64,000 bases of DNA, taken from the NCBI GenBank assembly GCA_015057825.1, contig SVDN01000002.1:16044-80043 (forward strand). Direction: 5' to 3'. How positions within the stretch are numbered: the stretch's first letter is position 1; each line of letters begins with the position of its first letter. The notes beneath the pieces were generated by a model that was given only the letters and a program-made list of their open reading frames with translations, was not told the DNA's origin and did no database searches. The stretch is from Lachnospiraceae bacterium (lineage in GTDB: Bacteria; Bacillota; Clostridia; Lachnospirales; Lachnospiraceae). Both the position numbers and the translations under genes were made by a program. Shown here in pieces: positions 24,525-57,635 of this stretch.

Positions 24525-24561
24525 GCCCAAGAGAATGTAGTTTAGAATAAAGGTAAATATT

Positions 24562-34837: not shown

Positions 34838-34857
34838 CAAAAAGGAGATATAACAAA

Positions 34858-35175: not shown

Positions 35176-35189
35176 AGAGGTGAAGATTT

Positions 35190-36134: not shown

Positions 36135-36147
36135 GGGGGGTGATTAT

Positions 36148-36597
36148 ATGTCATTGAGGTTTGATATATCAAAAAATGTTGATGATTATAAAAGTGCAAT
36201 TGCGCTGGGATTGGGTGCGGCAGAAATCGCTGCGGGTATAATTTCAGTTTCAATAGGCGTATTTATAATTTTGCTTTTGTATTTCTTAATTGGTATCCAT
36301 ATTGTTGTAGCAGTATATATGGGAATGCCGGTGATAATAGCGCTGTGTTTTTTAACAATTAGAAAAAAACATGGAAAAACTTTTTTTCAAAGGCTAATTG
36401 CCGGAGAATTAATCGGGCATAAAAGAACAACATGCAAGTATGCATCTAGCGAATCTTTGGATGCAATAAAGGCTGTTCGGGAAAATAGATTAAAAAAGGA
36501 AAAGGAACTTGCAAATGTATTACCGGAAGATGCAACAAATATCCAAATAATAAAAGCTGCGCTCAAAGAAACATTTAGGATAAAGAGAAAGGATTAG
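36148..36597 (+). CDS. PrgI-family protein (VirB3-like)
   Basis: Two adjacent TM helices. Immediately upstream of VirB4. ATG 36148 after GGGGGGTGA. Confidence 0.55.
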   Translation: MSLRFDISKNVDDYKSAIALGLGAAEIAAGIISVSIGVFIILLLYFLIGIHIVVAVYMGMPVIIALCFLTIRKKHGKTFFQRLIAGELIGHKRTTCKYASSESLDAIKAVRENRLKKEKELANVLPEDATNIQIIKAALKETFRIKRKD

Positions 36598-36603
36598 AAT
36601 AAA

Positions 36604-38958
36604 ATGGGAATCATTAAAAATAACGTAAAAGAGCAAATTAAACCAAATGATTTTTTGGTGTCTATGCCAAAAAGTGCGCAACAAACTCTTGAAATTAAGA
36701 GAGTGGGTCCGGGTGGAATTTTTGAACATAATGCCGGTATATATTCAAAAACATATCTATTTAAAGATATTAACTATGAAATGTTTTCGGATGAAGAAAA
36801 AGGAGATGTTTTAAGTCCATACATAAGTTTTTTGTCGTCTTTAACAGCACGCACGAAAATTACTATCGTTAATAGGAAGTTAAACAGCCAAGAAGTTGAC
36901 GAGCACACATTATATCCACTTAAAAATGATGGATATGATGAAATTAGAAATATGTGTAATCAACATATTCGAACCAAACAAGCAGAGGGGAATGAAGGGC
37001 TTGAGCAAAAAAAGTATATTACGTTTACTACAGAACGTCCGGATTATAACGCTGCAAAGAGTCACCTTAATACAATAGAAGCGGGGTTAAGGCGTGATTT
37101 TATGGCGCTGGAAGCAGAGGTAAGAGCTCTTTCAAGTGACGAAAGACTTGAGCTTCTTTATGATTTTTATAATCCTGATGAAGAAAAGAGATATCTATTA
37201 AGTATTGATGAATACATTAAGAATAATCGCGACTTTAAAAACGATATTGTTCCTGTAAAAGGAATAGAATTTAATGATGAATATGTGAAAATTGGTGACA
37301 ACTATAAAAAAGCTGCGTTTATATCCTTTTTTCCAAGCTCGCTAACAGATTTGTTTTTTCAAGAATTATGCAACTATAGAGCAAACGCTATTATAACTGT
37401 CGATATAATACCAATTGATAAGCATGATGCACTTGATTTATTGGAAGATAAATATTTAGAGGTCGAAAAAAAAATAGAAAAACAGCAGGAAACAAGGAAT
37501 CGAAGAAAAAATTTTACGAGTGATATTTCAAAAAAGGTTCAGGATGAAAAAAAGGCCATCTTGGATGAAATCGATCAGATAAATATTAAGAATCAAAATT
37601 TCTTTTATGGGGGAATAACAATAGTTATAAGCGCCACCGGAAAAGAAGAAATGGAGCATACTTTTAAAGAACTGAGAGATTTATGTGATAGGCATCGATG
37701 CAAACTTAGCTGCTATTACGGTGCACAGGAACAGCGCGCGGCTATGAATACAGCGTTACCTCTAGGAGTAATGCAGGTCGATTATTTAAGAAGCTTTTTA
37801 ACCAGTGATATTGCAGCGTTTCAACCTTTTCATGCTCAAGATATAAAAGAAAAAAAAGAATTTTGTGTTGTTGGTATAAACCAAATCAGCAAAAGAATTA
37901 TTTCTATCAACCAAAAGGTGTTAGTAAATGGTAATGGTTTTGTTTTTGGTGTTTCCGGTGCCGGAAAGTCGTCTTTTATAAAATGGTATATAACATCGTT
38001 ATTAGTAAATACTGATGATGATATCATCATTTTCGATCCCAAAAATGAGTACCATGTAATTACAGATATGTTTGATGGAACAAATATCATTTTTTCAAAT
38101 AGAAAAGACAATCGTCTTAATCCTTGGGAAGTTGATTTAGAGGAGCTTAGAAACGGCAACACTTCCAAGATAATTACGGATAAGTATGAGCTTATGATGG
38201 CAATAGCAGAGAATGCATACAGAGGGTCGATTGATCAGATTCAGGATTCGATCCTGTCACGTTGCATAAAGAAGGTGTATGAGGATTTGGCAAATTCCGA
38301 CGATGATAGGCAGATTATTTGGAATGATATATACGAAGAGCTGAAAATGCAGCCTGAGCCTGAAGCAGAAAAATTGGTTTCTTCTTTTGAGCTTTTTGTA
38401 ACCGGTATTTTAAATAAATTTAATGCTGAAACAAACGTTGATATGACTAACCGCTTAATTGTTTATGGCATCGATGATTTAGGTGAACGTCTTGAAAATA
38501 TTACAATGGTAATAATTTTGGAGCATATGTCACAACAAGTTATGAAAAATTTTAAGGCGGGTAAGGCAACAAGGTTAGTGGTTGACGAATTTCAAGAATT
38601 TTTAAATAAGCCATTTACGGCAGATTACATGGAAAAATGTTATGCTAAATTTAGATCTTATGGTGGGTTTGTTTTGGGAATCACTCAAAACATTGTCAAT
38701 TTGCTAAAAATGTACTCGTTTAGTACCATGCTTTCAAATTCTGAATTTGAAATTATTCTTAAACAATCTGAGATGGATGCCGGAGAAATATGTAATTACA
38801 TACACGGATTTACGCCGGCAATGATGAAATATTGTTTTAATTGTCCACCTGGAACAGGAATAATAAGATACGGAAATTATATAGCGCCATTTGACAATGT
38901 AATGTCGGAATCAAACCCATTATATAATGTATTCGACACAAATATGTGGCATAAATAA
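36604..38958 (+). CDS. virB4: VirB4-family conjugal transfer ATPase
   Basis: Walker A FGVSGAGKSSF, Walker B RLVVDEFQEF. 784 aa. Confidence 0.9.
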   Translation: MGIIKNNVKEQIKPNDFLVSMPKSAQQTLEIKRVGPGGIFEHNAGIYSKTYLFKDINYEMFSDEEKGDVLSPYISFLSSLTARTKITIVNRKLNSQEVDEHTLYPLKNDGYDEIRNMCNQHIRTKQAEGNEGLEQKKYITFTTERPDYNAAKSHLNTIEAGLRRDFMALEAEVRALSSDERLELLYDFYNPDEEKRYLLSIDEYIKNNRDFKNDIVPVKGIEFNDEYVKIGDNYKKAAFISFFPSSLTDLFFQELCNYRANAIITVDIIPIDKHDALDLLEDKYLEVEKKIEKQQETRNRRKNFTSDISKKVQDEKKAILDEIDQINIKNQNFFYGGITIVISATGKEEMEHTFKELRDLCDRHRCKLSCYYGAQEQRAAMNTALPLGVMQVDYLRSFLTSDIAAFQPFHAQDIKEKKEFCVVGINQISKRIISINQKVLVNGNGFVFGVSGAGKSSFIKWYITSLLVNTDDDIIIFDPKNEYHVITDMFDGTNIIFSNRKDNRLNPWEVDLEELRNGNTSKIITDKYELMMAIAENAYRGSIDQIQDSILSRCIKKVYEDLANSDDDRQIIWNDIYEELKMQPEPEAEKLVSSFELFVTGILNKFNAETNVDMTNRLIVYGIDDLGERLENITMVIILEHMSQQVMKNFKAGKATRLVVDEFQEFLNKPFTADYMEKCYAKFRSYGGFVLGITQNIVNLLKMYSFSTMLSNSEFEIILKQSEMDAGEICNYIHGFTPAMMKYCFNCPPGTGIIRYGNYIAPFDNVMSESNPLYNVFDTNMWHK

Positions 38959-38969
38959 TAGGGGTAAAT

Positions 38970-40835
38970 ATGCAGGAAGCAAGAGGAAAATACAGCGGTT
39001 TTCTAAGTGATAAGATATATTCTGATAGTGATGAAAATATTGTAAAAAACAAAGATAAAGACCTATTTGAAAAGATTAAGGAAGCACGTGAAGAAACACG
39101 TTTTAAAGGGAGTCGTGAAAATAAGAAGACAAAAGAGTTAGATGTATTTGAAACAGGTAGAGATGCAGCCTATAAAAATGCTATTAATTCCGAAAAAATA
39201 AGGATGTCAAAAGATGCAGCGAAAAAAACTTTTGATAAGATTAAATCGGAAACCAAAGAGGCTGTAAATAATGTTAAGTCAAGTGCCAAAGTGCCGATAA
39301 TGCAAACTTTTGGAACGATTAAGACAGATGCCCAGGCGGCGACAAAAGATGCAAAAAATAGTTTTTCACAAGCCAGTAATAGTCAAAAGGATTCATTTAT
39401 TAAAAATGAAAACATGGAAAAGCTAGCCGGCAGCGCCACCGGAAAAGTTGTTACTAAGTCTATTAAGGCAGTAAAGCGAATGGCAGATGTTGCAAAGTCT
39501 TTGGTTAAAGGGATATTAATAGCGATTTTCCCACCAATTGCAATAGTGTTTTTAATAATAGGGTTAATATTCTTGACGGTAATTATTATCGTTATTTCTA
39601 TCATTGGATATGAAATGTCAAACTTATTCATTCAAAGTCCGATTAATCAGGCGCTTATTTGGGAATATATGTCAGTTGAGTATAAGTATTTTAACAAACA
39701 TGGCTATTTGGACATAGAACTTGATGAAGGGGAGTATATCTTTAACGATAATATAGGCGATGCGCTGTTAATATATTTAAGTAAGTTCCCGGAAATGAAA
39801 GATGCTGAGGAAATATCCGAGTCGGCAAGACAAACTATGAATGATATTATTGAGCAGATGATAGTTGTTAGCAATAATGATATTGAAGGGAAAAGCATCT
39901 CTTTTCACACTATGTCGGCAGAAGAGTATATAGAAACATATGGGTTGTCGCCTGTAGAAATGGACAATTACAATGCATTTAAGGGAGAGAACTTTAGAGG
40001 TTCTTTAATTAACAATCCGGAAGCAGTAGGACAGGCTGTCGCAAATTATGCAATTGCCTGCGTTGGTAAACCATATAGCGGTGAAAAAAGAATGATGACC
40101 GGTTACTATGATTGTTCATCCTTGGTATTTAAAGCGTATGGTTCCCAAGGTTATGTTATTCCTTCGTTGGAATGCCAGCAAGCAAAATATTGCGAAAAGT
40201 ATGGTGAAGTTGTAACAAGCGCGTCTGATATGATGCCGGGAGACCTTATTTTTTATAAGGATCCCGATAATACAGAGTGTTATGAAGGGATAGGGCATGT
40301 TGGAATATACATAGGTAACGGTGAAATGGTGGAAGCAGCCGGAGAAAAACAAGGGGTAATAAGACATGGCATTTATTATGGAAATGCAGTAATGGTAGCA
40401 AGACCCTATAAAACAGCGATGCTTTCAATGCCATTGGATAACTACAATTATATTTCTACATATTATGGTTGGCGAGAATGGGATCAAAGTTTTCATGCCG
40501 GAATGGATTTTGCGGTAGCGGAAGGAACTCCAATAAGAGCAGCGGCTTCGGGAACGGTTTTATATTCTCTTTATACGTCTGATGCCGGAAATTTTATTGT
40601 AATAGATCATGGAAATGGATATTATAGTGAATATATGCACGCATCCGAACGCTATGTGAAACGTGGAGATTATGTTGGTCGAGGTGATGTAATTGCTACG
40701 GTTGGATCCACCGGATATTCAACAGGACCGCACTTACATTTCGGACTTGTAAAAAGTAACACAGGATATACCACAGATGCACGAATTGATCCGGCGCCAT
40801 ATTTAGGCATAAAAAATCCGAATAATGATAGTTAA
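38970..40835 (+). CDS. Bifunctional cell-wall hydrolase (NlpC/P60 + M23 peptidase), VirB1-like
   Basis: TM anchor. NlpC/P60 catalytic YYDCSSLVFKAY and IGHVGIYIG. M23 motifs FHAGMDFA and GPHLHF. Confidence 0.85.
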   Translation: MQEARGKYSGFLSDKIYSDSDENIVKNKDKDLFEKIKEAREETRFKGSRENKKTKELDVFETGRDAAYKNAINSEKIRMSKDAAKKTFDKIKSETKEAVNNVKSSAKVPIMQTFGTIKTDAQAATKDAKNSFSQASNSQKDSFIKNENMEKLAGSATGKVVTKSIKAVKRMADVAKSLVKGILIAIFPPIAIVFLIIGLIFLTVIIIVISIIGYEMSNLFIQSPINQALIWEYMSVEYKYFNKHGYLDIELDEGEYIFNDNIGDALLIYLSKFPEMKDAEEISESARQTMNDIIEQMIVVSNNDIEGKSISFHTMSAEEYIETYGLSPVEMDNYNAFKGENFRGSLINNPEAVGQAVANYAIACVGKPYSGEKRMMTGYYDCSSLVFKAYGSQGYVIPSLECQQAKYCEKYGEVVTSASDMMPGDLIFYKDPDNTECYEGIGHVGIYIGNGEMVEAAGEKQGVIRHGIYYGNAVMVARPYKTAMLSMPLDNYNYISTYYGWREWDQSFHAGMDFAVAEGTPIRAAASGTVLYSLYTSDAGNFIVIDHGNGYYSEYMHASERYVKRGDYVGRGDVIATVGSTGYSTGPHLHFGLVKSNTGYTTDARIDPAPYLGIKNPNNDS

Positions 40836-41562: not shown

Positions 41563-41802
41563 ATGGCATCGATTAATGTAAGAGTTGATGACAAGATAAA
41601 AGAAAAGGCGGAAGCAGCGCTTAATGAAATGGGGCTTAACATTTCTTCCGCTATTACAATGTATCTTGCAAAAATTGGAAATGAAGGAAGAATTCCTTTT
41701 GAAATCGAAACGATTGATGCAAAAAGAAACCGCGAGGAGCAGGCCCGGCGTTTCAACGCTTATGCGGAAGCGATTGGTAAGTTACAAAAACCGAATGAAT
41801 AA
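41563..41802 (+). CDS. RelB/DinJ-family RHH protein (orphan antitoxin-like)
   Basis: MASINVRVDDKIKEKAEAALNEMGLNISSAITMYL matches the DinJ/RelB N-terminal RHH. No RelE/YafQ-like gene follows. Confidence 0.7.
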   Translation: MASINVRVDDKIKEKAEAALNEMGLNISSAITMYLAKIGNEGRIPFEIETIDAKRNREEQARRFNAYAEAIGKLQKPNE

Positions 41803-41810
41803 GATAAATT

Positions 41811-41841
41811 AGTCACACTCTTTTTTGGGTGTGACTTTTTG
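41811..41841 (+). terminator. Intrinsic terminator
   Basis: AGTCACAC...GTGTGACT + TTTT. Confidence 0.65.
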
Positions 41842-43652: not shown

Positions 43653-45626
43653 ATGCTTATGGTTATAAAAGAATTGTCAAAATTTAAGGCTTTGATTGTT
43701 ATAGTTATGTTTTTTGCTGTCATTTTTGCCTTGCCGAGTGTAAAAACATATGCAGCACCGGGGTGGTATGCGGAAAATGCCTATGCCTATGATACAAAAG
43801 GAAATATAGCTATTCCGTCAAGTGCAAGTAAAGGTGGAACAGCTGCCACAAGGTTTGCAACTGTAGGATATAGAATTACTTTTGGAAGTTATAACCAGTA
43901 TTATGTGGATTTAGCAAAAAATAAGTATTATACAATGTATGGTGGATTACAAACACCTGAAATAACGGTAGCTGCAAGCCGCCAAGGAGTAACAGAAATT
44001 GCATATGCAGAAGAAGGAAATACTGCATTTAGCTTGTTCCTCGTTGATTATAGTACATTTCTTCGTGCCGTTGTCGGCAAATATGGTGCCGGATCTGATG
44101 CATATAATTATATTTCTGCACCTACAAGTGGAACAAGAACAGTAAGACTTTATCTTGATCCGATAATGACAAGTGCTCATATATCTGATTACGGCCAAAG
44201 TGTATGGCTTGCAAGTGGTCAAGCTCATGTTGATAGCAGATATCAGATTGCCTGGGATACCGGTAATTATTATGGCACAAGAGATGGAATGCTTTATTAT
44301 TGGGGAACATTAACAGGTAATTACAGTAATCAAGATATTTATTATTCATATGGCAAATACGTTGATATTTATATAGACTCAGGGACTCAGAAGTATACGC
44401 AAACAACTTATCATCAGAAAAAAAGTGCACAGACAGGTAAATATCTAAGCGCGTTTAAAACCGTCAAGGAAGATATTCAATATGGAGCAAGATACACTCC
44501 GGCATATACAACAGTTCCAACCGGCTATGTAAAAGGTGGCATAACCGCTGCATATGATGTAACAGGTGCACATACAAACTATGCTTACTACAACCCTATA
44601 AGCTATACGGTTAATTATCAGCCAAATGGTGCAACCGGTGGCTCCATGAACTATTCAACCTATTGGTATGACTGGTCTCAGCCTTTGAGTAAAAACCAAT
44701 ATGAAAGAAAGTATACGGTAAACTTTGATGGATCACTTGGAGAAGTTGAAACCGATAGTTTGACTGCTGTATATGATTTTAATGGTTGGAATCTAAGAAC
44801 AGACGGAAAAGGTCAAAGCTTTACGGACGGACAAAATATATTAAATTTGACTTCAACCAATAATGCAAAGATAGATATGTATGCACAGTGGACGCCAAAC
44901 GGAATAACACTTCCTAAGGCAGCAAGGGAAGGTGGTTATGAATTTCTTGGATGGTCAACTTCAAACGAAAAAACTGTTATCTATGACAAGGAAACAGAAG
45001 AGCTGCCAACATTAAAAGAAGGCGATTACTACATTCCAACAAAGAATGAAACATTGTACGCCGTATACTATGCTATACCGCCAACGGTATGGGCTCCGGA
45101 GAAAGAGCTTGATTATGGCGATGAAATGACAGAGTATTGGCTTTTATACGATTCAACCGCTGAAGACGCAACCGGAAAGGATATATCGGAAGATGTATTT
45201 ATTTCTGATTTAGGCGGCTTGCAGCTTAATATATATAATCCTTACAAATATTATGATGTAGAATATTGTGCCGTTGCTCCAAACGGTGCAAAAGGCTATT
45301 ATACGGCGAAAATAAGGGTGACATACAGATATGTACGCTACATATCGGCAGAATATATAGATACCCTGGAGCCGGATAGTAAATGGTTGACTGATCCTAA
45401 GCTTTATGCAGAACTTGTTGACTGCTTAAATACGGAAAGAGATCCGGTGCAGATTTGGGAGTTTTCAAATGAAGATAGGTTAAACATACAAAGATACATG
45501 ACAACACACGCACCTTCGAGAGAAGCCATTGATTGGTTTTTGGAAAACTACTCAGACAGAAAAGTTTATGAAGATTTAGGACAGGCTTATTTTAACGGAG
45601 TGAAAGGAAGTGAACTTGGATATTGA
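43653..45626 (+). CDS. Secreted surface protein with Listeria-Bacteroides-type repeat (adhesin candidate)
   Basis: Signal peptide ending VKTYA/AP. YTVNYQPNGATGG...FNGWN...MYAQW and GYEFLGWSTS...LYAVY fit the InlB-B/Flg_new repeat pattern. Confidence 0.55.
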   Translation: MLMVIKELSKFKALIVIVMFFAVIFALPSVKTYAAPGWYAENAYAYDTKGNIAIPSSASKGGTAATRFATVGYRITFGSYNQYYVDLAKNKYYTMYGGLQTPEITVAASRQGVTEIAYAEEGNTAFSLFLVDYSTFLRAVVGKYGAGSDAYNYISAPTSGTRTVRLYLDPIMTSAHISDYGQSVWLASGQAHVDSRYQIAWDTGNYYGTRDGMLYYWGTLTGNYSNQDIYYSYGKYVDIYIDSGTQKYTQTTYHQKKSAQTGKYLSAFKTVKEDIQYGARYTPAYTTVPTGYVKGGITAAYDVTGAHTNYAYYNPISYTVNYQPNGATGGSMNYSTYWYDWSQPLSKNQYERKYTVNFDGSLGEVETDSLTAVYDFNGWNLRTDGKGQSFTDGQNILNLTSTNNAKIDMYAQWTPNGITLPKAAREGGYEFLGWSTSNEKTVIYDKETEELPTLKEGDYYIPTKNETLYAVYYAIPPTVWAPEKELDYGDEMTEYWLLYDSTAEDATGKDISEDVFISDLGGLQLNIYNPYKYYDVEYCAVAPNGAKGYYTAKIRVTYRYVRYISAEYIDTLEPDSKWLTDPKLYAELVDCLNTERDPVQIWEFSNEDRLNIQRYMTTHAPSREAIDWFLENYSDRKVYEDLGQAYFNGVKGSELGY

Positions 45627-46057
45627 TGAACAAAGTTATACTGATAGGAAGACTTACGAGAGATCCTGATGTTAGATATACATCAGGGGAAGACGGTGTA
45701 TGCGTAGCACGTTTTTCTTTAGCTGTAGATCGCAGATATAAAAAAGATGGAGATGCACAGACAGCAGATTTTCCGTCTTGTGTTGCATTTAGAAAGACCG
45801 GCGAATTTATCGAAAAATACGCGAAAAAGGGAACAAAGCTCTGCATTGAAGGTCGTCTGCAGACCGGTTCTTATACGAATAAGGACGGTGTTAAAGTATA
45901 CACAACAGATGTTGTGGTTGAAAACTGCGAGTTTGCGGAAAGTAAAGTTGCAGCAGGTGGTAGCAGTGAGGAAGGTGCGCCGGAGCCAACTGTAGATTCG
46001 GATGGTTTTATGAATATACCGGATGGATTAGACGACGAAGGCTTGCCTTTTAACTAA
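45623..46057 (+). CDS. ssb: Single-stranded DNA-binding protein
   Basis: MNKVILIGRLTRDPDVRYT OB-fold N-terminus. Acidic tail DDEGLPFN. Confidence 0.9.
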   Translation: MMNKVILIGRLTRDPDVRYTSGEDGVCVARFSLAVDRRYKKDGDAQTADFPSCVAFRKTGEFIEKYAKKGTKLCIEGRLQTGSYTNKDGVKVYTTDVVVENCEFAESKVAAGGSSEEGAPEPTVDSDGFMNIPDGLDDEGLPFN

Positions 46058-46068
46058 GAGGTGAAAAA

Positions 46069-46443
46069 ATGCGTGCAGCACTAATGGGAATATGTTTTAT
46101 ATTTATCTTTGGCTTTAGCACCATAACACAGTGCGTAATAACGGATGTGGCTACCAGGTGTGATGAAGTTAAAATGACTTTTGACGATTCCGTAAGAGAC
46201 ACGATGCAAGCCATGCTTTGCACAAAAGCTTACTCTATAGACGAAATCGATGATTTCATGGCGGATTTTATCGAAACATTTATGTTTGAAAATAGTGCAA
46301 ACAGTAAGTTTAAAATTGAAGTTAGCAGCATCGATGCCGAGGCCGGCATTGCCAATGTACAGGTATCATCTTATTTTAAAGTAGCAAGTGGCAAATGGAA
46401 ACAAATTACTGTTGAAAATGCGGTTGTATTTAACCAATGGTAA
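46069..46443 (+). CDS. Small protein with N-terminal hydrophobic segment (pseudopilin-like?)
   Basis: MRAALMGICFIFIFGFSTI then a soluble domain. Located just upstream of the Tad-type ATPase. Confidence 0.35.
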   Translation: MRAALMGICFIFIFGFSTITQCVITDVATRCDEVKMTFDDSVRDTMQAMLCTKAYSIDEIDDFMADFIETFMFENSANSKFKIEVSSIDAEAGIANVQVSSYFKVASGKWKQITVENAVVFNQW

Positions 46444-46462
46444 ACAGAAAGGAAGTGAAAAA

Positions 46463-46651
46463 ATGGGACACTTATTTCATCAGTTCAGAGGTGTGTTTAT
46501 CGCTGTAATAATTGCAATTATCATTTTGGTCATGGCGTTAGCAGTTGGTGCTTGGTTCAAGAGTAATACCACAAAGCAGCTTAACAGCTTTGATGCTATT
46601 ATTGATGAGCAAATGCAAGAAGTTAATGCGTACAAAGAAACAGGAGAATAG
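46463..46651 (+). CDS. Small single-TM protein (62 aa)
   Basis: ATG after AAAGGAAGTGA. FRGVFIAVIIAIIILVMALAVGAWF. Confidence 0.35.
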   Translation: MGHLFHQFRGVFIAVIIAIIILVMALAVGAWFKSNTTKQLNSFDAIIDEQMQEVNAYKETGE

Positions 46652-46654
46652 GAA

Positions 46655-47689
46655 ATGACAAATATATTGGAAAATTTAGATCTATCCGAAATCGAAGAGT
46701 TTCTTGAAGACGAAAACGTAACAGACATTGATTGGAATGGCGAAGATCTGTGGACAGACAACATTGTGCTTGGCCGGGTAAAACAAGAAAAGAAGTTAAG
46801 CGCTGAGTTTGTTGAAGGGCTTACAACCAAAATAGGCAATTCGCAGAATAAAACCTTAAATAAGCATAATCCGGTTCTGGAAGCAGAATCGGATACTTTA
46901 AGGTTTTCCATACTTCATGAAGAAATTACAGGCGGCCTTAGAAGCGTTTCAATAAGAAAAACGCCGGCAACAATGAGACTTTCAAAAGAAATGCTTATTG
47001 AAACAGGGTATATAACAGAGCCGCTTTTTAATTTTTTTGAAAATGCAATAAAAGCGCATTGCACTATTGTTATATGTGGTCTTCCGGCAGTTGGAAAAAC
47101 AGAATTTTTAAAGCTTCTTACCAATACTATACCGCCTTATGAGAGGGTAATAACAATAGAAGATAGGAAGGAAATCCATTACAAGCAGATTAATCCGGGA
47201 AAGGATTGTGTAGAGGTAAAGATAAGTCCAACACTTGATTTTCCTTCTGCTATATCGTTTGCATTGAGCCATAATGCCAAGTGGACTATTCTTTCCGAAG
47301 CAAGAGGTGCTGAGGTAGAATATCTTATGAATAATCTTTCTTCCGGTACATTTTGCCTTACAACGCTACATACAAACGATGTAAGGAAGATCCCGGATAG
47401 GTTGGCTAATATGTTGCCGGGCGGTGAGGAACATACACGTTTTATAAATGACGTTTATGATTTTATTGATATTGGTGTTTTGATTACTTCAAAAATTCAA
47501 AACGGTAAAAGTATTACAAGACGTATCGAACAAGTCGGACTCTTTTCAAGAGAACACGGTCAAAACCAGGTTTCGATGATTTATGATGACAACAAATTTA
47601 TCGCGGAGAATTTATCGCCGGAGATCGTAAGAAAGTTTATGAAAGCCGGCATAAAAAACCCTTATGTTGCATCCAAAGGAGAAGATTAA
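46655..47689 (+). CDS. T2SS/T4P/T4SS-family secretion ATPase (CpaF/TadA/VirB11-like)
   Basis: Walker A ICGLPAVGKTEF. Walker B/Asp box TILSEARGAE. His box TTLHTN. 344 aa. Confidence 0.8.
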   Translation: MTNILENLDLSEIEEFLEDENVTDIDWNGEDLWTDNIVLGRVKQEKKLSAEFVEGLTTKIGNSQNKTLNKHNPVLEAESDTLRFSILHEEITGGLRSVSIRKTPATMRLSKEMLIETGYITEPLFNFFENAIKAHCTIVICGLPAVGKTEFLKLLTNTIPPYERVITIEDRKEIHYKQINPGKDCVEVKISPTLDFPSAISFALSHNAKWTILSEARGAEVEYLMNNLSSGTFCLTTLHTNDVRKIPDRLANMLPGGEEHTRFINDVYDFIDIGVLITSKIQNGKSITRRIEQVGLFSREHGQNQVSMIYDDNKFIAENLSPEIVRKFMKAGIKNPYVASKGED

Positions 47690-49164
47690 TGAATAAATTT
47701 ATTGCGAAGATTGAAAGTTTGGGTTATACGTTTTCGCCTGGAACACTTATATTAATTGCCGTAATAGTTGAGGCTTTTACAGTGGGAGTGTCTTTTCTTT
47801 ATTTGTTACACTTGCCATTTGCAATAGCTCTTATGGTTTTGGGAATATTGGTTGTTCCTTCGGTATATTACTCAAGAACCAGGTATAAATACGAAGAAAA
47901 TCGCTTTTCTGCGTTATGCACATATATGGAACAGATGTGTTATTCATTTCAGACTATGCCAAAAATTTACAATGCGTTAAAAGAAACATATACTATTTTA
48001 CCTTCCGGTGAAATGAAAGCAGCTGTTAGCGCCGCTATAAAGTATTTTGAAGTGGAAAACGGCACGTATGCTGATGCCTTGAACATCATTGAGTCACGTT
48101 TTTTGTGCAAAAAACTGGCTAAATTACATAGATTTTTTATAAAAATCGAAGAAGAGGGCGGCGATTATAAATACGCATTAGGACTACTGTTAACAGATAT
48201 ATTAAAGTGGCGTGAGCGTGTACAGCTTTACCAGCAGGAAAAGAAGACATTAAAGGTAGCTTATGTGCTTGCGATAATCTTTTCATCTATCGCATGCGCA
48301 TTTGCAACACTTCTTGCAGTTGTAGGAAAAAAAGAAGGAGATCTTCTTACGACATTCTTAGATATAACCGGTGTTCCGGTATATCAGATGATAGCCTTTG
48401 TATTTATAGCAGCGTGTATTATATCATTTTATTTTATAGAAAAACGATATACAAACAGTTGGATAGAGGATAAGAAATATACAAAGTATGAGCTTATTGA
48501 CTACGACATAAGTATTAATTATGACTATATATCCGATACACGGAAAATGCTAATTCCGGCGGTTGTAATAGCCGGCGGCTCAGTGATTTTATCATTACTT
48601 TTTACGCCACTATGTTTAATTGGTTTGATTCTGGCTATTCTATTAATTGCAACGCCAAGGATAAAATACCAGGGCGCAAGACAAAGAACTGTTTCGGAGC
48701 TTAAGGCGGCTTTTTCGGAGTGGCTTGTGGATCTTGAATTAAACTTACAATTTTATAATAACCACAAAGCAATTGAAAAGTCTTTGGATTCAGCCCCGGA
48801 AATTTTGAAAAAACCGATAAAACAACTAATATTGGATATTAATGATAACTTATCGGGAATAGAACCGTTTAATAACTTTCTTGGAGAGTTTGACATCGAA
48901 GAGGTTCGCTCATCGATGCGCATGGTCTATTCCATGAAAGATTTAAATTCGGAAAACACATCAGAACTTCTTTCAACGATTGTTGATAGGAACTATGTGC
49001 TTATGGATCAGACGGAAGCGGAAAAAAATAAAACGAAAATAAGCAATCTTAAAATGCTTATTTTAACGCCTGCAGGTTTTGGAATTTTTAAACTTTCCGC
49101 AGATTTAATGATCTTTGCTGCAACTTTCTTTAATGGAATGTCAGACGTTTCACAGTTTATGTAG
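47689..49164 (+). CDS. Polytopic membrane protein, possible TadB/TadC (GspF-type) platform
   Basis: Translationally coupled to the ATPase (TAATG). Alternating TM pairs and cytoplasmic helical regions. Family not verified. Confidence 0.4.
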   Translation: MNKFIAKIESLGYTFSPGTLILIAVIVEAFTVGVSFLYLLHLPFAIALMVLGILVVPSVYYSRTRYKYEENRFSALCTYMEQMCYSFQTMPKIYNALKETYTILPSGEMKAAVSAAIKYFEVENGTYADALNIIESRFLCKKLAKLHRFFIKIEEEGGDYKYALGLLLTDILKWRERVQLYQQEKKTLKVAYVLAIIFSSIACAFATLLAVVGKKEGDLLTTFLDITGVPVYQMIAFVFIAACIISFYFIEKRYTNSWIEDKKYTKYELIDYDISINYDYISDTRKMLIPAVVIAGGSVILSLLFTPLCLIGLILAILLIATPRIKYQGARQRTVSELKAAFSEWLVDLELNLQFYNNHKAIEKSLDSAPEILKKPIKQLILDINDNLSGIEPFNNFLGEFDIEEVRSSMRMVYSMKDLNSENTSELLSTIVDRNYVLMDQTEAEKNKTKISNLKMLILTPAGFGIFKLSADLMIFAATFFNGMSDVSQFM

Positions 49165-49173
49165 GGGGTTATT

Positions 49174-49269
49174 ATGCACAATTTATTTGAAGAGTTATCT
49201 GCGTTTATGTTTGTCCCGGTCATTGTTGCGGCAATCATTGTCTTTGCGAGAATAATGATGTCGGTATAG
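49174..49269 (+). CDS. 31-aa hydrophobic peptide (pilin-like candidate)
   Basis: MHNLFEELSAFMFVPVIVAAIIVFARIMMSV. RBS GGGGG 6 nt upstream. Confidence 0.3.
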   Translation: MHNLFEELSAFMFVPVIVAAIIVFARIMMSV

Positions 49270-49280
49270 AGAGGTAGTTT

Positions 49281-49418
49281 ATGTCATATTTATATGAACA
49301 CTTTAGCAAGTTTATAGTAACCATAATTGGCGCTGTAGGTGTAATAATCGGAGCCATAATAATTTATTTGAATTTGGATTCGATTTTAAGCTTCTTTACG
49401 AAAGGATTTTTAGGATAA
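49281..49418 (+). CDS. 45-aa hydrophobic peptide
   Basis: MSYLYEHFSKFIVTIIGAVGVIIGAIIIYL... RBS GAGAGG. Stop overlaps the next start (TAATG). Confidence 0.3.
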   Translation: MSYLYEHFSKFIVTIIGAVGVIIGAIIIYLNLDSILSFFTKGFLG

Positions 49419-49756
49419 TGAGAAACATAATTGAAGGATTTATTATTATTCTTTTTATTGGTTTTATTGCGTATGCATCTCTAGGTTTCATCAATATGAA
49501 TAACCAAACAGCAGATGCAAGGGGCTTTTTAGAGTCTGCAGTAACGGATATAGAAAGAAGCGGGTTTTCTGATACGGTAATAGGCGCCTGGCAAGATAAA
49601 GCACAAGATTGCGGATATGAGCTTGTAGCGTCTGATGCATCAACGACAATTATTGATAAAAAGAAACATTGTATTGAAATACAGCTTAAATATACAGCAA
49701 ACAATCCATTCTTTAGAATTAAGGAACAAAGCACGATTAAGGAATATGCGAGGTAG
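49418..49756 (+). CDS. N-terminally anchored small protein (pseudopilin-like)
   Basis: MRNIIEGFIIILFIGFIAYASLGF then a soluble domain. In the Tad-like cluster. Confidence 0.4.
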   Translation: MRNIIEGFIIILFIGFIAYASLGFINMNNQTADARGFLESAVTDIERSGFSDTVIGAWQDKAQDCGYELVASDASTTIIDKKKHCIEIQLKYTANNPFFRIKEQSTIKEYAR

Positions 49757-49759
49757 AAT

Positions 49760-50551
49760 ATGGGCAAGTTTATAAAAGAGTATAGTGCCGTTGCAGTCGC
49801 AGTTATTGTTTCAATATTTATATTGATAGCGGCAACCAACGCATCAAAGTCTGTTAGCAACGTATCTGAAAAACAGACGGCTGCGCTTGAAAACAATGCT
49901 GCGGCTTGGCAGGTTGGTGATTCTGCAGATTTTGAAACTGTAGGAGAACTTACAGACGTAGAACAAACACAGTTAGATGCAATGCAAGCCAAGTTGGATG
50001 CAATGCAAGAGCAAATAGATAACTTTGAAGGATTTGACTTGGATAAAGCTTATCCTATTGGTTCAATTTACATTACTATGTCTTCAGCAGATCCCGCAGA
50101 TCTTATGGGTGGAACCTGGGAAAGAATGGAAGACAGAGAGTTAATTGGAGCCGGTAATCTATATACTGTTGGAAGCGAGCAAGGTAGCAGCTCCGTTAAG
50201 TTGGCAGCTACGCAGATTCCTTCTTTATCGGTAAGTGGCAGTACCAATAGTGCCGGAGCACATACTCATGTTATTGGTATGGGACCTGCCAAATGGAATT
50301 ATGGCAGTCAAGCCTGGTATTCTGATACTGTAGGGCCACCAAACCAACTTTTTGCGCCATATGGATATGGTATGGGAAGTGGTGGTCCAACAACACACGC
50401 AGGTTATTATAACCAATCAAATGGTACAAGTACATATTCTTCCGGGACTCATACACACACAGTAACAGCAAAATATACAAACAACAATCAAACATCGGTC
50501 AGTGTAATGGATCCAACCATAGCAGTTTACATGTGGAAGCGTGTTGCCTAG
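49760..50551 (+). CDS. Membrane/pilin-anchored protein with phage tail-collar-like receptor-binding domain, copy 1
   Basis: N-terminus MGKFIKEYSAVAVAVIV (G-x4-EY + hydrophobic helix). C-terminal YPIGSIYITMSSADPADLMGGTWERMEDRELIG and HxH motifs (AHTHV, THTHT), as in Gram-positive phage tail fibre/collar proteins. Confidence 0.6.
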   Translation: MGKFIKEYSAVAVAVIVSIFILIAATNASKSVSNVSEKQTAALENNAAAWQVGDSADFETVGELTDVEQTQLDAMQAKLDAMQEQIDNFEGFDLDKAYPIGSIYITMSSADPADLMGGTWERMEDRELIGAGNLYTVGSEQGSSSVKLAATQIPSLSVSGSTNSAGAHTHVIGMGPAKWNYGSQAWYSDTVGPPNQLFAPYGYGMGSGGPTTHAGYYNQSNGTSTYSSGTHTHTVTAKYTNNNQTSVSVMDPTIAVYMWKRVA

Positions 50552-50635
50552 ATTATATAGTCGCTAGTTAAAAAAGAATGTAGTATTCTTGTTGATTCTT
50601 TAATATAATAAAAGAAAAAATATATTTTCGAAAGG
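49760..50635. repeat. Duplicated segment, copy 1 (gene + downstream 65 bp)
   Basis: Near-identical to 51098..51975. The first ~130 bp are more diverged, then only a few substitutions. The ~20 bp after each stop codon differ. Confidence 0.85.
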
Positions 50636-50649
50636 AACAAGATACAAAT

Positions 50650-50826
50650 ATGCTCGTAGAAAATACAAAAGAAAATAGGGAATTACAGGAAGCGGTAGCA
50701 ACGCTAGCAATTGAAGATATGTTTGTAGAGGAAGCATTTTTGAATGAATTAATGCAAGTTTCAGAAGGAAAAAAAACGACGGAAGAGCTTAGGAGAGAGG
50801 TTATTAAAAAGTATGCAAGACGTTAA
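50650..50826 (+). CDS. VbhA-like antitoxin of a class I Fic module (58 aa)
   Basis: MLVENTKENRELQEAVATLAIEDMF... has TLAIED, resembling the (S/T)xxxE(G/N) inhibitory motif. Overlaps the fic start by 14 nt. Confidence 0.5.
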   Translation: MLVENTKENRELQEAVATLAIEDMFVEEAFLNELMQVSEGKKTTEELRREVIKKYARR

Positions 50827-51097
50827 ATACTGTTATCCTAACTCAGATGTTTTAAAAAACAAGTTAAACATTAGAAACTCAGAAGATTTATATGAGGCAG
50901 AAAAAGAACTGACATTAATTCGAATAAAGGAGCTTCAAGCGCGTCCGCTGATGGGAAAATTTGACTTTCAGCATTTAAAAAATATCCATAAATATATATT
51001 TCAAGATTTATATGAATGGGCTGGTGAGGTCAGAACTGTTGAAATTGGAAAAGGCAATCTTTTTTGTACAACAGCATGTATAAACGAATACGCTAAA
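50813..51097 (+). pseudogene. 5' fragment of a class I fic (FicT/VbhT-like) gene, fused in frame to tail-collar copy 2
   Basis: YCYPNSDVLKNKLNIRN...IHKYIFQDLYEWAGEVRTVEIGKG is the Fic N-terminal region. The ORF never reaches an HPFxxGNGR motif. Confidence 0.6.
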
Positions 51098-51889
51098 ATG
51101 GGCAAGTTTATTAAAGAGTACAGTGCTGTTGCAGTCGCAGTTATTGTGGCAATAATAATATTGATAGCGGCAGGTAACGCATCAAACTCTGTTCGTAACT
51201 TATCTGAGAAGCAGACAGCAGCACTTGAAAAAAATGCTGCGGCTTGGCAGGTTGGGGATTCTGCAGATTTTGAAACTGTAGGAGAACTTACAGACGTAGA
51301 ACAAACACAGTTAGATGCAATGCAAGCCAAGTTGGATGCAATGCAAGAGCAAATAGATAACTTTGAAGGATTTGACTTGGATAAAGCTTATCCTATTGGT
51401 TCAATTTACATTACTATGTCTTCAGCAGATCCCGCAGATCTTATGGGTGGAACCTGGGAAAGAATGGAAGACAGAGAGTTAATTGGAGCCGGTAATCTAT
51501 ATACTGTTGGAAGCGAGCAAGGTAGCAGCTCCGTTAAGTTGGCAGCTACGCAGATTCCTTCTTTATCGGTAAGTGGCAGTACCAATAGTGCCGGAGCACA
51601 TACTCATGTTATTGGTATGGGACCTGCCAAATGGAATTATGGCAGTCAAGCCTGGTATTCTGATACTGTAGGGCCACCAAACCAACTTTTTGCGCCATAT
51701 GGATATGGTATGGGAAGTGGTGGTCCAACAACACACGCAGGTTATTATAACCAATCAAATGGTACAAGTACATATTCTTCCGGGACTCATACACATACAG
51801 TAACAGCAAAATATACAAACAACAATCAAACATCGGTCAGTGTTATGGATCCAACCATAGCAGTTTATATGTGGCAGCGTGTTGCCTAG
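51098..51889 (+). CDS. Tail-collar-like protein, copy 2 (may be translated alone or as a Fic-N fusion)
   Basis: Same 263-aa architecture as 49760..50551. The internal ATG 51098 aligns with the copy 1 start. Confidence 0.55.
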   Translation: MGKFIKEYSAVAVAVIVAIIILIAAGNASNSVRNLSEKQTAALEKNAAAWQVGDSADFETVGELTDVEQTQLDAMQAKLDAMQEQIDNFEGFDLDKAYPIGSIYITMSSADPADLMGGTWERMEDRELIGAGNLYTVGSEQGSSSVKLAATQIPSLSVSGSTNSAGAHTHVIGMGPAKWNYGSQAWYSDTVGPPNQLFAPYGYGMGSGGPTTHAGYYNQSNGTSTYSSGTHTHTVTAKYTNNNQTSVSVMDPTIAVYMWQRVA

Positions 51890-51975
51890 AAGTAGTTCAA
51901 CCGACATCTTAAAAAAGAATATAGTATTCTTGTTGATTCTTTAATATAATAAAAGATAAGATATATTTTCGAAAG
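51098..51975. repeat. Duplicated segment, copy 2
   Basis: See copy 1. Confidence 0.85.
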
Positions 51976-52056
51976 AAAGCGTGTCGATGTAATTACGAAA
52001 GAAGAAGCTTTGCGCATAATGCCAAAAACTATAGAAAGGGAAAAAGGTTCTTATAT

Positions 52057-52305
52057 ATGAACGAAAACACTAGAACAAGCAATGTCGAAGAAATGTTGCC
52101 TTCTTTTTTAAAAGAATCTATTGATAAGTTTGTAGAAGGAAAAATGAAAAGCGAAGCCGACAAAAGCTATATGCAGTTTGACTGTGATTATTGCGAGCTG
52201 CAAAGTGATATAAATGTTGCGGAAGTGGAAGGAATTATTTCATCGGAAGAAGCTTGGAATTTGAGAAAAAAATATTTAGGAATTAATAAGGGAACAATAG
52301 ATTGA
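52057..52305 (+). CDS. Hypothetical 82-aa protein coupled to a HipA-like gene
   Basis: Stop overlaps the next start (ATGA). Acidic. Confidence 0.45.
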   Translation: MNENTRTSNVEEMLPSFLKESIDKFVEGKMKSEADKSYMQFDCDYCELQSDINVAEVEGIISSEEAWNLRKKYLGINKGTID

Positions 52306-53216
52306 TGATTGATTTTTCAAAATGTGAACATAAAAATAAAACATATTCGGGTGCAAATGGTAGTAAGATTTCGGTTGTTTATGATAATGGGTTGTATATG
52401 CTTAAGTTTCCGTCAAGGGCACCAAGAAATGATGATATAAGCTATAGTAACAGCTGCTTCTCTGAATATCTAGGTTGCAAGATATTTAAGGAAATTGGTA
52501 TTCCTGTTCAAGACGTAGTTTTGGGAACATATACAACAAATAAAGGTAACGAGAAAATAGTTGTAGCTTGTAAGGATTTTGCCGTAAATGGCAAAGTATT
52601 ACAGGATTTCGGATCTTTAAAAAATCAAATTGTCGATTCTGAAAACAATGGATATGGAACGGAGCTAGAAGATATTAAGGAAACATTTGAGTTACAAACC
52701 ATTGTAGATCCTATAGAATTATCAAAAAGATTTTGGGATATGTTTATTGTTGATGCTTTAATTGGAAATTGGGATAGACATAACGGAAATTGGGGATTTC
52801 TTTACGACTCTATGGCTGACAAAAACGAGTTAGCACCTGTCTTTGATTGCGGAAGTAGTTTATATCCACAGTTGGATGAAGAAAAAATGAAGCATATCCT
52901 TGTGGATGGTAAGGAAATAAAAGCAAGAGTATATAATATCCCTACATCTGCAATAAGAATAAATAGCAAAAGAATTAACTATTATAATTTCATTCTTTCC
53001 GGAGAGGAAATGGGTTGTAATGATGCATTAAAACGTATTGTTCCTAATATTGATACAGACAAGATTTTTGATATTATTGACAATATGCCAATTATAGGTG
53101 ATGTACATAAAGATTTTTATAAGCAGATGTTAATACAAAGATATAATTTGATATTGGTAAAGTCGTATAAGAACTTAAACAAACTTTACAATATTAAGAA
53201 ACCAAAAAGATTATAG
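52302..53216 (+). CDS. HipA-like kinase family protein (short form)
   Basis: IGNWDRHNGNWGFLYD and LAPVFDCGSSL correspond to the HipA_C catalytic and Mg loops. Confidence 0.65.
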   Translation: MMIDFSKCEHKNKTYSGANGSKISVVYDNGLYMLKFPSRAPRNDDISYSNSCFSEYLGCKIFKEIGIPVQDVVLGTYTTNKGNEKIVVACKDFAVNGKVLQDFGSLKNQIVDSENNGYGTELEDIKETFELQTIVDPIELSKRFWDMFIVDALIGNWDRHNGNWGFLYDSMADKNELAPVFDCGSSLYPQLDEEKMKHILVDGKEIKARVYNIPTSAIRINSKRINYYNFILSGEEMGCNDALKRIVPNIDTDKIFDIIDNMPIIGDVHKDFYKQMLIQRYNLILVKSYKNLNKLYNIKKPKRL

Positions 53217-57411: not shown

Positions 57412-57463
57412 ATAAAAAATGCGCCTCCAGGGGCTCGAACCCTGCACACCCTGATTAAGAGTC
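57412..57463. repeat. attR: att direct repeat (right), overlapping the intact tRNA-Lys 3' part
   Basis: Identical 52-mer to 13002..13053. Confidence 0.85.
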
Positions 57464-57492
57464 AGGTGCTCTACCAAATGAGCTAGAGGCGC
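57420..57492 (-). tRNA. tRNA-Lys (anticodon CTT)
   Basis: Reverse complement folds as GCGCCTC-TA-GCTC..GAGC-A-CCTGA-CTCTTAA-TCAGG-GTGTG-CAGGG-TTCGAGC-CCCTG-GAGGCGC-A. 73 nt. Confidence 0.9.
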
Positions 57493-57635
57493 AAATCAAA
57501 TTAGCAAATGTTATTATATGATAAAGGGTCAAATAATGCAAGCACTTTTTTAGATTTTATGATATATTAATATTGTTAGACTTAATCTTAAAAATAATTC
57601 GGCAAAGGGCCGATTTTTATATTTCGGAGGAGAAA

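Follow-up and report, generated by a model that had tools for sequence, protein, structure and literature searches.

A candidate minimal type IV filament module in an integrative and conjugative element of a Lachnospiraceae bacterium

How Gram-positive donor cells establish and maintain contact with recipients when two thick cell walls stand between them is an open question. It is raised by a compact gene cluster at positions 46069 to 50551 of a 64,000-nucleotide stretch of DNA from a Lachnospiraceae bacterium (GenBank assembly GCA_015057825.1, contig SVDN01000002.1, positions 16,044 to 80,043; hereafter the window). The cluster lies within an integrative and conjugative element (ICE) carrying a type IV secretion system (T4SS) of the Gram-positive type, and a preliminary description of the window had likened it to a Tad/VirB11-type set of ATPase, platform, and pilin genes. 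What might such a set do there? The answer we regard as somewhat probable is that the cluster encodes a minimal type IV filament machine of Tad/archaeal lineage, with uncleaved subunits and a pilin-anchored adhesin, and that its likely role is in mating pair formation and not as a DNA conduit. The core of a type IV filament (ATPase, platform, and pilins) is encoded together at this locus; the ATPase is certain, and the platform and pilins are assigned by remote homology at the family level.

The plus strand of this interval consists of eight tightly packed open reading frames (ORFs) of 124, 62, 344, 491, 31, 45, 112, and 263 amino acids. They are given here with the upstream gene for a secreted protein and a downstream copy of the last gene.

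43653 to 45626 (+): secreted protein of 657 amino acids, candidate adhesin (signal peptide, weak Flg_new repeat)
46069 to 46443 (+): accessory protein of 124 amino acids with an N-terminal hydrophobic helix (ORF and sequence)
46463 to 46651 (+): pilin-like protein of 62 amino acids (Shine-Dalgarno sequence and N termini of homologs)
46655 to 47689 (+): secretion ATPase of 344 amino acids, the proposed motor (Pfam T2SSE, nucleotide-binding boxes)
47689 to 49164 (+): polytopic platform protein of 491 amino acids (two homologous halves, remote T2SSF likeness in relatives)
49174 to 49269 (+): pilin-like peptide of 31 amino acids, MHNLFEELSA plus hydrophobic helix (counterpart in L005, member of the M-x-x4-E-[YFHLW]-[GSA] set)
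49281 to 49418 (+): Flp-sized pilin-like protein of 45 amino acids, MSYLYEHFSK plus hydrophobic helix (counterparts in related loci)
49418 to 49756 (+): accessory protein of 112 amino acids with an N-terminal hydrophobic helix and a conserved C terminus ending ...GYAR (homologs in 23 loci)
49760 to 50551 (+): candidate pilin-anchored adhesin of 263 amino acids (Pfam Gp10_C, AlphaFold2 [AF2] model, Foldseek)
51098 to 51889 (+): second copy of the 263-amino-acid adhesin gene (within the ORF at 50813 to 51889, behind Fic codons)

All features first described for the eight-ORF cluster are present and conserved in related loci. The proposed translational coupling of the ATPase and platform genes is borne out by a stop and a start codon that share one base (TAATG), and the 45- and 112-amino-acid ORFs likewise overlap by one base. 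The mechanical start of the 62-amino-acid ORF is a GTG at 46388; a better start is the ATG at 46463, which is preceded by a Shine-Dalgarno sequence (AAAGGAAG) and yields an N terminus that aligns with those of homologs. Since the sole strong plus-strand terminator nearby is at 41811 to 41836, the genes from 41865 on, including those for the 657-amino-acid protein and an SSB of a type common in transfer regions, may form one transcription unit with the cluster; the same strand has no terminator-like site between 41836 and the 657-amino-acid gene (43653). Apart from that strong terminator, the promoter and terminator scan performed no better overall than on shuffled sequence.

The same gene order, including 31- and 45-amino-acid ORFs of equal length (loci L001, L005, and L007), recurs in loci whose ATPase is 40 to 67% identical. 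A tblastn comparison (E≤1e-5) found an ATPase match in 93 loci, 80 of them metagenome loci recovered with an ATPase profile; in 75 of the 93 the ATPase gene adjoins a platform gene. The remainder are mostly truncated contigs or belong to the subgroup L045 to L055, whose ATPases are about 43% identical and in which tblastn found no platform match. In L045, the member of this subgroup that was inspected, what follows the ATPase gene is five short ORFs whose frames differ, a sign that the module may have decayed there; six loci of the subgroup have an integrase-like gene about 5 kb downstream. Together with 767 platform clusters and more than 1,300 ATPases, these loci place the module, by sequence, in a large uncharacterized family of gut Firmicutes. 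A megablast search with positions 45600 to 50600 returned no match among plasmids and phages. The same ICE, inserted at the same site, was seen in several metagenomes. Public gene calls of the same ICE (L095 to L098) omit the 31- and 45-amino-acid ORFs and start the 62-amino-acid gene 15 codons early, which helps explain why the pilin-like genes go unnoticed.

The 344-amino-acid protein is a hexameric-type ATPase of the T2SSE superfamily, matching Pfam T2SSE (PF00437) at residues 97 to 253 with 49.7 bits against a gathering cutoff of 24.9. Its nucleotide-binding boxes can be read in the translation (Walker A, GLPAVGKT; Asp box, ITIEDRKE; Walker B, ILSEARGAE; His box, TTLHTN), and their G, K, T, E, D, and H columns are invariant among 34 homologs. 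The highest NCBIfam score is for VirB11 (TIGR02788), at 89.7 bits against a cutoff of 250 and with its best stretch confined to residues 120 to 275. The TadA-type model (TIGR03819) scores 67.7 bits against 373, the TrbB, FlaI, and ComGA models score lower, and the matches to ComGA and to the bindosome ATPase BasE are weak. The nearest solved structures are Archaeoglobus fulgidus GspE (2oap), Helicobacter HP0525, CpaF, and FlaI, with CpaF matching at only E≈1e-8. Because no curated subfamily model, neither VirB11 nor TadA, is passed in NCBIfam and the nearest structures are spread in this way, the protein is best placed as a deep, VirB11-sized member of the VirB11/TadA/archaeal GspE branch. The earlier label of a CpaF/TadA/VirB11-like ATPase thus stands for the superfamily and the branch, but not for VirB11 or TadA proper. 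Its relatives (E≤1e-10) are mostly 45 to 50% identical and come largely from gut metagenomes and Eubacterium metagenome-assembled genomes (MAGs); a single profile scan of genome contigs with the ATPase gave a distant Bdellovibrionales match only.

The neighboring 491-amino-acid protein is likely homologous to the platform proteins GspF, PilC, FlaJ, and the TadB plus TadC pair, although curated thresholds do not prove this. Its N- and C-terminal halves align with each other (hhalign, 90%, E=1.4e-6), and its AF2 model (pLDDT 92.9) consists of two repeats, each with a long helix, then four short ones, then a further long helix; the architecture of two homologous halves is common to all of those platforms. 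A word-index search retrieved 2 relatives, against 767 cluster representatives in an exhaustive profile search. Among 56 aligned relatives T2SSF is the commonest Pfam match (21 at E≤1, best E=1.6e-4), and in 6 of 10 relatives examined the match covers model positions 2 to 122 of 125, in the same register, at residues ∼90 to 220. The top Foldseek match in the PDB is chain Ca of 3jc8, a model of the type IVa pilus machine (probability 0.97); the family profile had no meaningful match among PDB sequences.

These results bear on one alternative, in which the ATPase is a true VirB11 docked under VirB4, the 491-amino-acid protein is a VirB6-type channel subunit, and the small proteins are unrelated membrane peptides. 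The top NCBIfam score for VirB11 speaks for it, as does the naming of the pLS20 and pAW63 homologs as VirB11 in the literature (PMC8557374, PMC1196294). We nevertheless consider it highly unlikely: the VirB11 score is far below its cutoff and confined to part of the protein, the ATPase-platform pair occurs in many loci without VirB4, the partner has duplicated T2SSF-like halves and not a VirB6 topology, and the ICE already encodes a VirB6-like protein elsewhere (314 amino acids, 35190 to 36134).

The proposed filament subunits were surveyed across the window and about 90 related loci, which yielded 348 distinct small ORFs whose products have a hydrophobic helix at the N terminus. The motif x4-E-[YFHLW]-[GSA] lies near the start of 145 of them, and in 132 of these 145 exactly two residues precede its register; in the few ORFs with more residues before it, translation probably begins at an internal M-K. 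Small proteins of more than 80 related loci have M-x-x-F-L-x-E-Y-G in common. In the consensus, M-[KEDR]-x-F-L-E-E-Y-G, the register of mature Flp pilins (E5, Y6, G7) has M-x alone ahead of it. One of K, E, D, and R occupies position 2; at position 3, proteins of the class encoded upstream of the ATPase have A, E, or V and those of the downstream class mostly E. Upstream proteins have 53 to 66 amino acids, are often encoded in two to four tandem copies, and match Flp1_like (11/32, best 4e-6), Flp_Fap (10/32), and Arch_flagellin (4/32) in Pfam. Tandem runs of two to four upstream Flp-like genes, an arrangement typical of major pilin genes, are found in L065, L041, L066, L009, and L034 (e.g., MKAFLEEYGVIIVAAIV...).

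The window has a single, degenerate copy of this upstream gene. Its 62-amino-acid product (MGHLFHQFRG) aligns with 31 upstream small proteins and occupies the position of the multicopy Flp-like pilin of the relatives, with Q-F-R in place of E-Y-G and no Flp1_like or Flp_Fap match of its own. The 31-amino-acid peptide has a counterpart of equal length in L005 (MKMLFDEYSG...). The 45-amino-acid protein, whose amphipathic C terminus ends in G, has counterparts of 45 to 47 amino acids in L001, L002, L005, L007, L009, and L011; many subunits of this size end in a conserved ...G-G or ...I-G.

Flp prepilins of Tad systems carry a leader peptide and a G/XXXXEY cleavage site. In the family described here, the E-Y-G register is preceded by M-x with no G at position −1, and no small residue (G or A) is conserved across the family at the cleavage position of A24 peptidases. 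Archaeal-style cleavage at [KR]-[GAS] after residue 3 was considered and rejected as a general rule, with E at position 3 in 25 of 56 downstream proteins and H, N, Y, or K in the window members. Of the claim that at least six small hydrophobic-helix proteins surround the ATPase and platform genes as pilin-like components, a family with Flp-like N termini remains, but one that lacks a cleavable leader and whose members in the window are degenerate.

The earlier remark that the element has no recognizable prepilin peptidase was confirmed: no A24 peptidase was found among 40 proteins scanned with Pfam, and no polytopic ORF in the window contains the A24 signature GxGD[x][KR]. In the DNA recovered for related loci, this signature has one match, in an unrelated protein of 846 amino acids. 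Some other processing of the subunits is conceivable. ORFs resembling intramembrane proteases lie within a few kilobases of related modules and are absent from the window; one is annotated as CPBP (L014, 2368 to 2811), and others in L020 (from 4590), L040 (7633), and L093 (8349) are CPBP-like by EE..FRG motifs only. An S26 signal peptidase is encoded in the L009/L010 cluster (L009, 15165 to 15683).

The last gene of the cluster encodes a candidate pilin-anchored adhesin. Its 263-amino-acid product combines a leaderless pilin-like N terminus (MGKFIKEYS...), a long helix, a coiled coil, and a C-terminal domain of the phage T4 gp10 type, which matches Pfam Gp10_C with 68 bits against a cutoff of 27. 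The AF2 model contains a helix at residues 8 to 50, a coiled-coil helix at 66 to 89, and a confident beta domain, for which Foldseek returned the T4 gp10 C-terminal domain (2fkk) and the T4 baseplate (5iv5), both with a probability of 1.00. Two HxH motifs flank a variable, poorly modeled insert that differs in a 78% identical homolog (P0273). Three other homologs (P0285, P0332, and P0348) carry canonical prepilin N termini (MKKKGFTLIELLAV...) on the same type of domain, and so provide a sequence precedent for a phage-type domain on a pilin-like N terminus. Gp10_C might suggest that the region derives from a phage, but this reading was rejected, since nothing except the C-terminal domain of this one protein is phage-like and the element is an ICE delimited by att sites.

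The adhesin gene is duplicated. Positions 49757 to 50640 and 51095 to 51981 form a direct repeat of 95% nucleotide identity, the second copy lying 1,338 bp downstream of the first. The two products differ at eight amino acids, seven of them at positions 18 to 45, and the nucleotide differences cluster in the first 160 nucleotides. Ahead of the second copy, and joined to it in frame, stand the initial ∼95 codons of a VbhT-like Fic gene (NCBIfam VbhT, E=2e-20, for the truncated Fic N terminus), and a 58-amino-acid ORF at 50650 to 50826 (+) sits in the antitoxin position ahead of this cut gene. A duplicated and variable gp10-type domain on a pilin-like anchor suggests how specificity for recipients or surfaces could be tuned.

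The remaining proteins would be accessory components. The 124-amino-acid protein, encoded directly upstream of the pilin and ATPase genes, may be a pseudopilin-like subunit. Its tblastn relatives in six or seven related loci have 122 to 230 amino acids, some with a C-terminal extension; in homologs of ∼200 to 230 amino acids this includes segments such as KKGYIFCGWKM, Flg_new-like by eye only, which may link the pilin-like and adhesin components. The 657-amino-acid protein has a signal peptide and a match to Pfam Flg_new (the Listeria-Bacteroides repeat) at E=0.002, below the curated cutoff. By tblastn its relatives adjoin the module in L007/L008, L039, L041, and L080, and an 840-amino-acid Flg_new protein is encoded inside the L002 to L004 cluster, making it a candidate adhesin that travels with the module.

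Like the Tad/Flp pili of Caulobacter (Cpa) and Aggregatibacter (Tad), the module has just one ATPase of VirB11-like type, several accessory proteins that resemble pseudopilins, and very small Flp-type pilins in which a hydrophobic helix follows the E-Y-G register; its two platform halves would correspond to the paralogous TadB/TadC domains. It differs in that the platform halves are fused in one 491-amino-acid protein of weak T2SSF resemblance, the pilins have a two-residue "leader" and no G at −1, and the ATPase, at 344 versus about 500 amino acids, is without the additional N-terminal domain seen in CpaF. Neither TadZ (ParA/MinD-like) nor RcpC was found when the eight proteins of the cluster were scanned against Pfam and NCBIfam. 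Because TadV, TadZ, RcpC, and a cleavable leader are missing and no curated Tad or VirB11 threshold is passed, the module is not a canonical Tad system; what survives of the Tad-like gene set first proposed is its generic ATPase, platform, and pilin content. Tad-like loci without recognizable pilins were described in some Clostridia by Imam et al. in 2011 (PMC3244431). We considered this "no Flp" clade as a prior description of the family and rejected it, since those loci contain tadV, tadZ, and rcpC and so represent a different group (PMC3244431).

Archaeal systems (type IV pili, the archaellum, and the bindosome, with FlaI/FlaJ, afGspE, and BasE) resemble the module in other respects. GspE 2oap is the best solved-structure match of the ATPase, the platform, as in FlaJ, has its two repeats within a single polytopic protein, and the subunit N termini are very short and positively charged. 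Archaeal subunits, however, are cleaved at [KR]-[GAS] by PibD, FlaK, or EppA, and neither such a site nor such a peptidase was found here.

The weak matches to BasE and ComGA also bear on an alternative without an extended pilus, namely, a short pseudopilus or a display or secretion device comparable to the endopilus of type II secretion, the Com pseudopilus, or the archaeal bindosome. Its task would be to carry the 263- and 657-amino-acid proteins across the peptidoglycan or to clear the way for the T4SS. The several very short subunits (31 to 45 amino acids) and the large secreted Flg_new proteins that co-occur with the module are in keeping with it. Since the upstream pilin genes of the relatives are tandem, multicopy, and Flp-like, they suggest a structural major subunit instead, and we judge the pseudopilus version to be quite improbable. 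A pseudopilus and an extended filament are not distinguishable from sequence alone.

The ICE itself is well defined. The relaxase, the tyrosine integrase, and the perfect 52-bp duplication of the att site at a tRNA-Lys gene identify it as an ICE with a Gram-positive-type T4SS. The direct repeats that represent attL and attR lie at 13002 to 13053 and 57412 to 57463, the right copy overlapping the 3′ end of tRNA-Lys(CTT) (57419 to 57493, minus strand), and they delimit an element of ∼44.5 kb with the cluster well inside these bounds on the same strand as the T4SS. Its transfer genes and integrase are as follows.

13145 to 14254 (−): tyrosine integrase, adjoining the left att copy
32633 to 34837: VirD4
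34858 to 35175 (+): 105-amino-acid protein with a signal peptide and two hydrophobic helices, candidate VirB2-like pilin
35190 to 36134: VirB6-like polytopic protein of 314 amino acids
36124 to 36597: PrgI-like protein
36604 to 38958: VirB4
38970 to 40835: M23 plus NlpC/P60 cell wall hydrolase

The Firmicute-type mating channel reported at 32633 to 40835 was confirmed, with its VirD4, PrgI-like, VirB4, and hydrolase genes. The premise that Gram-positive conjugation is pilus independent fared less well; it is under revision, as VirB2-like pilins have been proposed for Gram-positive T4SSs (bioRxiv 10.64898/2025.12.18.695078), and this ICE has a candidate at 34858 to 35175. The 105-amino-acid ORF directly 5′ of the 314-amino-acid VirB6-like ORF reproduces the layout proposed for such pilins, and the ICE may for this reason encode two different filament systems.

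Distant relatives of the module also occur on conjugative plasmids. A tblastn search with the ATPase against plasmids matched 366 records at 26 to 33% identity (E down to 2e-36), including 270 from Bacillus, 45 from Listeria, and 31 from Enterococcus, and 221 were typed as conjugative. On pBatNRS213, of the pLS20 family, a Tie adhesin is followed by a 126-amino-acid protein, a "VirB11-like ATPase," proteins of 267 and 245 amino acids, a DUF4320 protein, tandem 47-amino-acid genes, and, later, VirD4; the same order is found within the conjugation operons of an Enterococcus faecium plasmid and of pAW63. The halves of the 491-amino-acid platform align with the two successive genes of pBatNRS213, the N-terminal half with gene 38 (hhalign, 68%, E=5e-5) and the C-terminal half with gene 39 (91%, E=9e-7). 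Proteins of 47 to 50 amino acids similar in layout to the 45-amino-acid protein occur as tandem copies in the pLS20-type and E. faecium plasmids.

The pLS20 genes 36 to 41 and their counterparts in pAW63/pXO2 and E. faecium plasmids share with the window the order of adhesin, ∼125-amino-acid protein, ATPase, platform-like gene or genes, ∼115-amino-acid protein, and ∼47-amino-acid protein, and the pLS20-type module, an ATPase with two platform-like genes in order, likewise sits in a Gram-positive T4SS element. The plasmids differ from the ICE in that the platform is split into two genes, whereas it is fused here, and in that their small proteins start with MLDQN-DR-x-[YW]-W in place of the x4-E-Y-G of the ICE family. 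The ∼120-amino-acid plasmid protein is DUF4320 and is not detectably related to the 112-amino-acid protein, which occupies its place; no DUF4320 signal was obtained for the 112-amino-acid family, and BLASTP, Pfam, and hhalign were negative or marginal, so that the assignment was dropped in favor of a positional analog. The 124-amino-acid protein was similarly rejected as a homolog of pLS20 gene 36, the 126-amino-acid pLS20-type protein sharing its position with no detectable pairwise similarity.

A functional analogy is offered by the thin pilus of R64 (IncI1) and the type IVb pilus of PAPI-1, in which a conjugative element encodes, in addition to a separate T4SS, a type IV pilus that serves contact between donor and recipient and has a pilin-anchored adhesin (PilV) with a varying C terminus. 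The R64 and PAPI-1 systems differ in being Gram-negative and of type IVb; they have a secretin and, as prepilin peptidase, PilU, and they vary by shufflon recombination, whereas here there are a tandem gene duplicate and a variable insert. Homology beyond the superfamily is not demonstrated.

We propose the following mechanism. The cluster at 46069 to 50551, probably with the 657-amino-acid protein (43653 to 45626), would form a minimal type IV filament machine in which a hexamer of the VirB11-sized ATPase drives a platform of two fused TadB/TadC-like halves. The platform would lift Flp-like single-helix subunits (62, 45, and 31 amino acids) from the membrane to build either a thin filament or a short pseudopilus, with the 124- and 112-amino-acid proteins as accessory or priming subunits. 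Subunits that begin with M-x followed by the x4-E-Y-G register would need no prepilin peptidase, and because they need no cleavage none would be encoded. The 263-amino-acid protein would sit in or on the filament through its pilin-like helix and present its gp10-type receptor-binding domain beyond the thick cell wall. In the ICE, the filament would most likely join donor and recipient to form or stabilize the mating pair, much as the accessory type IVb thin pilus of the IncI plasmid R64 does, and would not conduct DNA. The gene content, the homologies, the motif statistics, the lack of a peptidase signature, and the ICE setting are observed. Assembly of a filament is suggested by homology and gene content, and the mating role by location in an ICE and the plasmid parallels; the uncleaved state of the subunits and the position of the adhesin are likewise inferred.

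Several points weigh against this proposal, the first being that it rests as a whole on sequence inference alone. The 491-amino-acid protein has, by itself, no match to T2SSF or any other relevant family in Pfam and NCBIfam scans; the T2SSF matches of its relatives are all below the curated cutoff (best, 20.4 bits versus 25.2), the TM-score to 3jc8_Ca is low (0.23/0.31), and hhalign of the platform profile with Escherichia coli HofC gave no signal. The earlier likening to fused TadB/TadC, which is supported, draws on the homologous halves, the subthreshold matches of relatives, and the alignment to the pLS20-family gene pair, and not on a T2SSF match of the window protein. Small-protein motifs in the window are degenerate (H-Q-F-R, E-E-L-S, and E-H-F-S), and none of the MGHLFHQFRG, MHNLFEELSA, MSYLYEHFSK, and MGKFIKEYSA proteins has an individual Flp_Fap match in Pfam. 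No tie to TadE/F or DUF4320 was found for the 112- and 124-amino-acid proteins. A peptidase may also be encoded by the host outside the window.

The genomic setting of the relatives counts against a dedicated role in conjugation. By tblastn, no related locus has a VirB4 match, and the loci for which 10 kb was recovered on each side have no VirD4 match either; a VirD4-like gene occurs in just two metagenome loci (L016 and L036) within the DNA recovered. Some loci resemble mobile elements, and others are plainly chromosomal. Because most relatives have no T4SS nearby and some are chromosomal, the module appears to be a self-standing machine, not a T4SS component or an intrinsic conjugation device, which weakens the mating role. 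The claimed link to conjugation consequently holds for the location inside an ICE, on the T4SS strand, but not for the family.

The same observations are the ground for the main rival, a type IV filament carried as cargo and used in adhesion or colonization (of mucus, food particles, or other cells) with no part in DNA transfer. The tad locus is known as a "widespread colonization island." Eubacterium MAG contigs carry the cluster between housekeeping genes (biotin ligase, BioY, and an HhH-GPD glycosylase), the L007 module is flanked by polysaccharide genes, and in the window the module follows the T4SS genes and stands among accessory genes (Fic, HipA-like, and ArdC). Its orientation with the transfer genes, and the transfer-region-typical SSB gene in the same run, point the other way, and we hold the cargo reading to be rather unlikely.

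If the mating filament proposed above is correct, how much of it is new? A VirB11 homolog in a Gram-positive transfer region was reported in 2005 for pAW63 (PMC1196294), and a VirB11-like ATPase of pLS20 was reported in 2021, with the neighboring genes listed as unknown (PMC8557374). Current reviews nevertheless describe Gram-positive conjugation systems as without VirB11 homologs (PMC12857230), and a recent preprint states that type IV-type pili do not occur in Gram-positive T4SS operons (bioRxiv 10.64898/2025.12.18.695078). The ATPase is therefore not new in itself. What appears to be new is that it comes with platform- and pilin-like genes; the literature searched names the ATPase only and describes neither the leaderless family nor the pLS20-type region as a type IV filament module, although such a description may exist elsewhere.

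More tentatively, the family may be an undescribed, peptidase-free branch of type IV filaments in Firmicutes, recruited as a mating pilus by this ICE and, more distantly, by pLS20, pAW63/pXO2, and pMG1-like plasmids. If so, the statements that Gram-positive T4SSs lack VirB11 and that their operons contain no type IV-type pili would both be wrong. Prepilin peptidase is listed among the core components of type IV filaments (Denise et al., 2019; PMC6668835), a picture that a widespread family with nothing to cleave would change, and the family would have been overlooked by pilin predictors keyed to cleavage motifs and by gene callers that skip ORFs of 31 to 45 amino acids. The locus may well be of wider interest, as a type IV filament that would work without a peptidase and as a pilus module that has escaped notice in Gram-positive conjugative elements. 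Together with the regions syntenic to it on pLS20, pAW63, and E. faecium plasmids, it provides a genetically testable candidate, a complete ATPase/platform/pilin/adhesin set inside transfer regions.

Elsewhere in the ICE, a MobA/VirD2-type relaxase, RepA_N, a Toprim primase, an actin-like partition protein, and the tyrosine integrase are encoded further upstream of the T4SS, and HipA-like, ArdC, and DUF3846 genes followed by housekeeping genes lie downstream of the module. Toxin-type genes comprise an intact Fic gene and two HipA_C-like kinase genes (23745 to 25698 and 52302 to 53216), and a RelB-like antitoxin gene (41563 to 41802) lies just 5′ of the terminator at 41811 to 41836.

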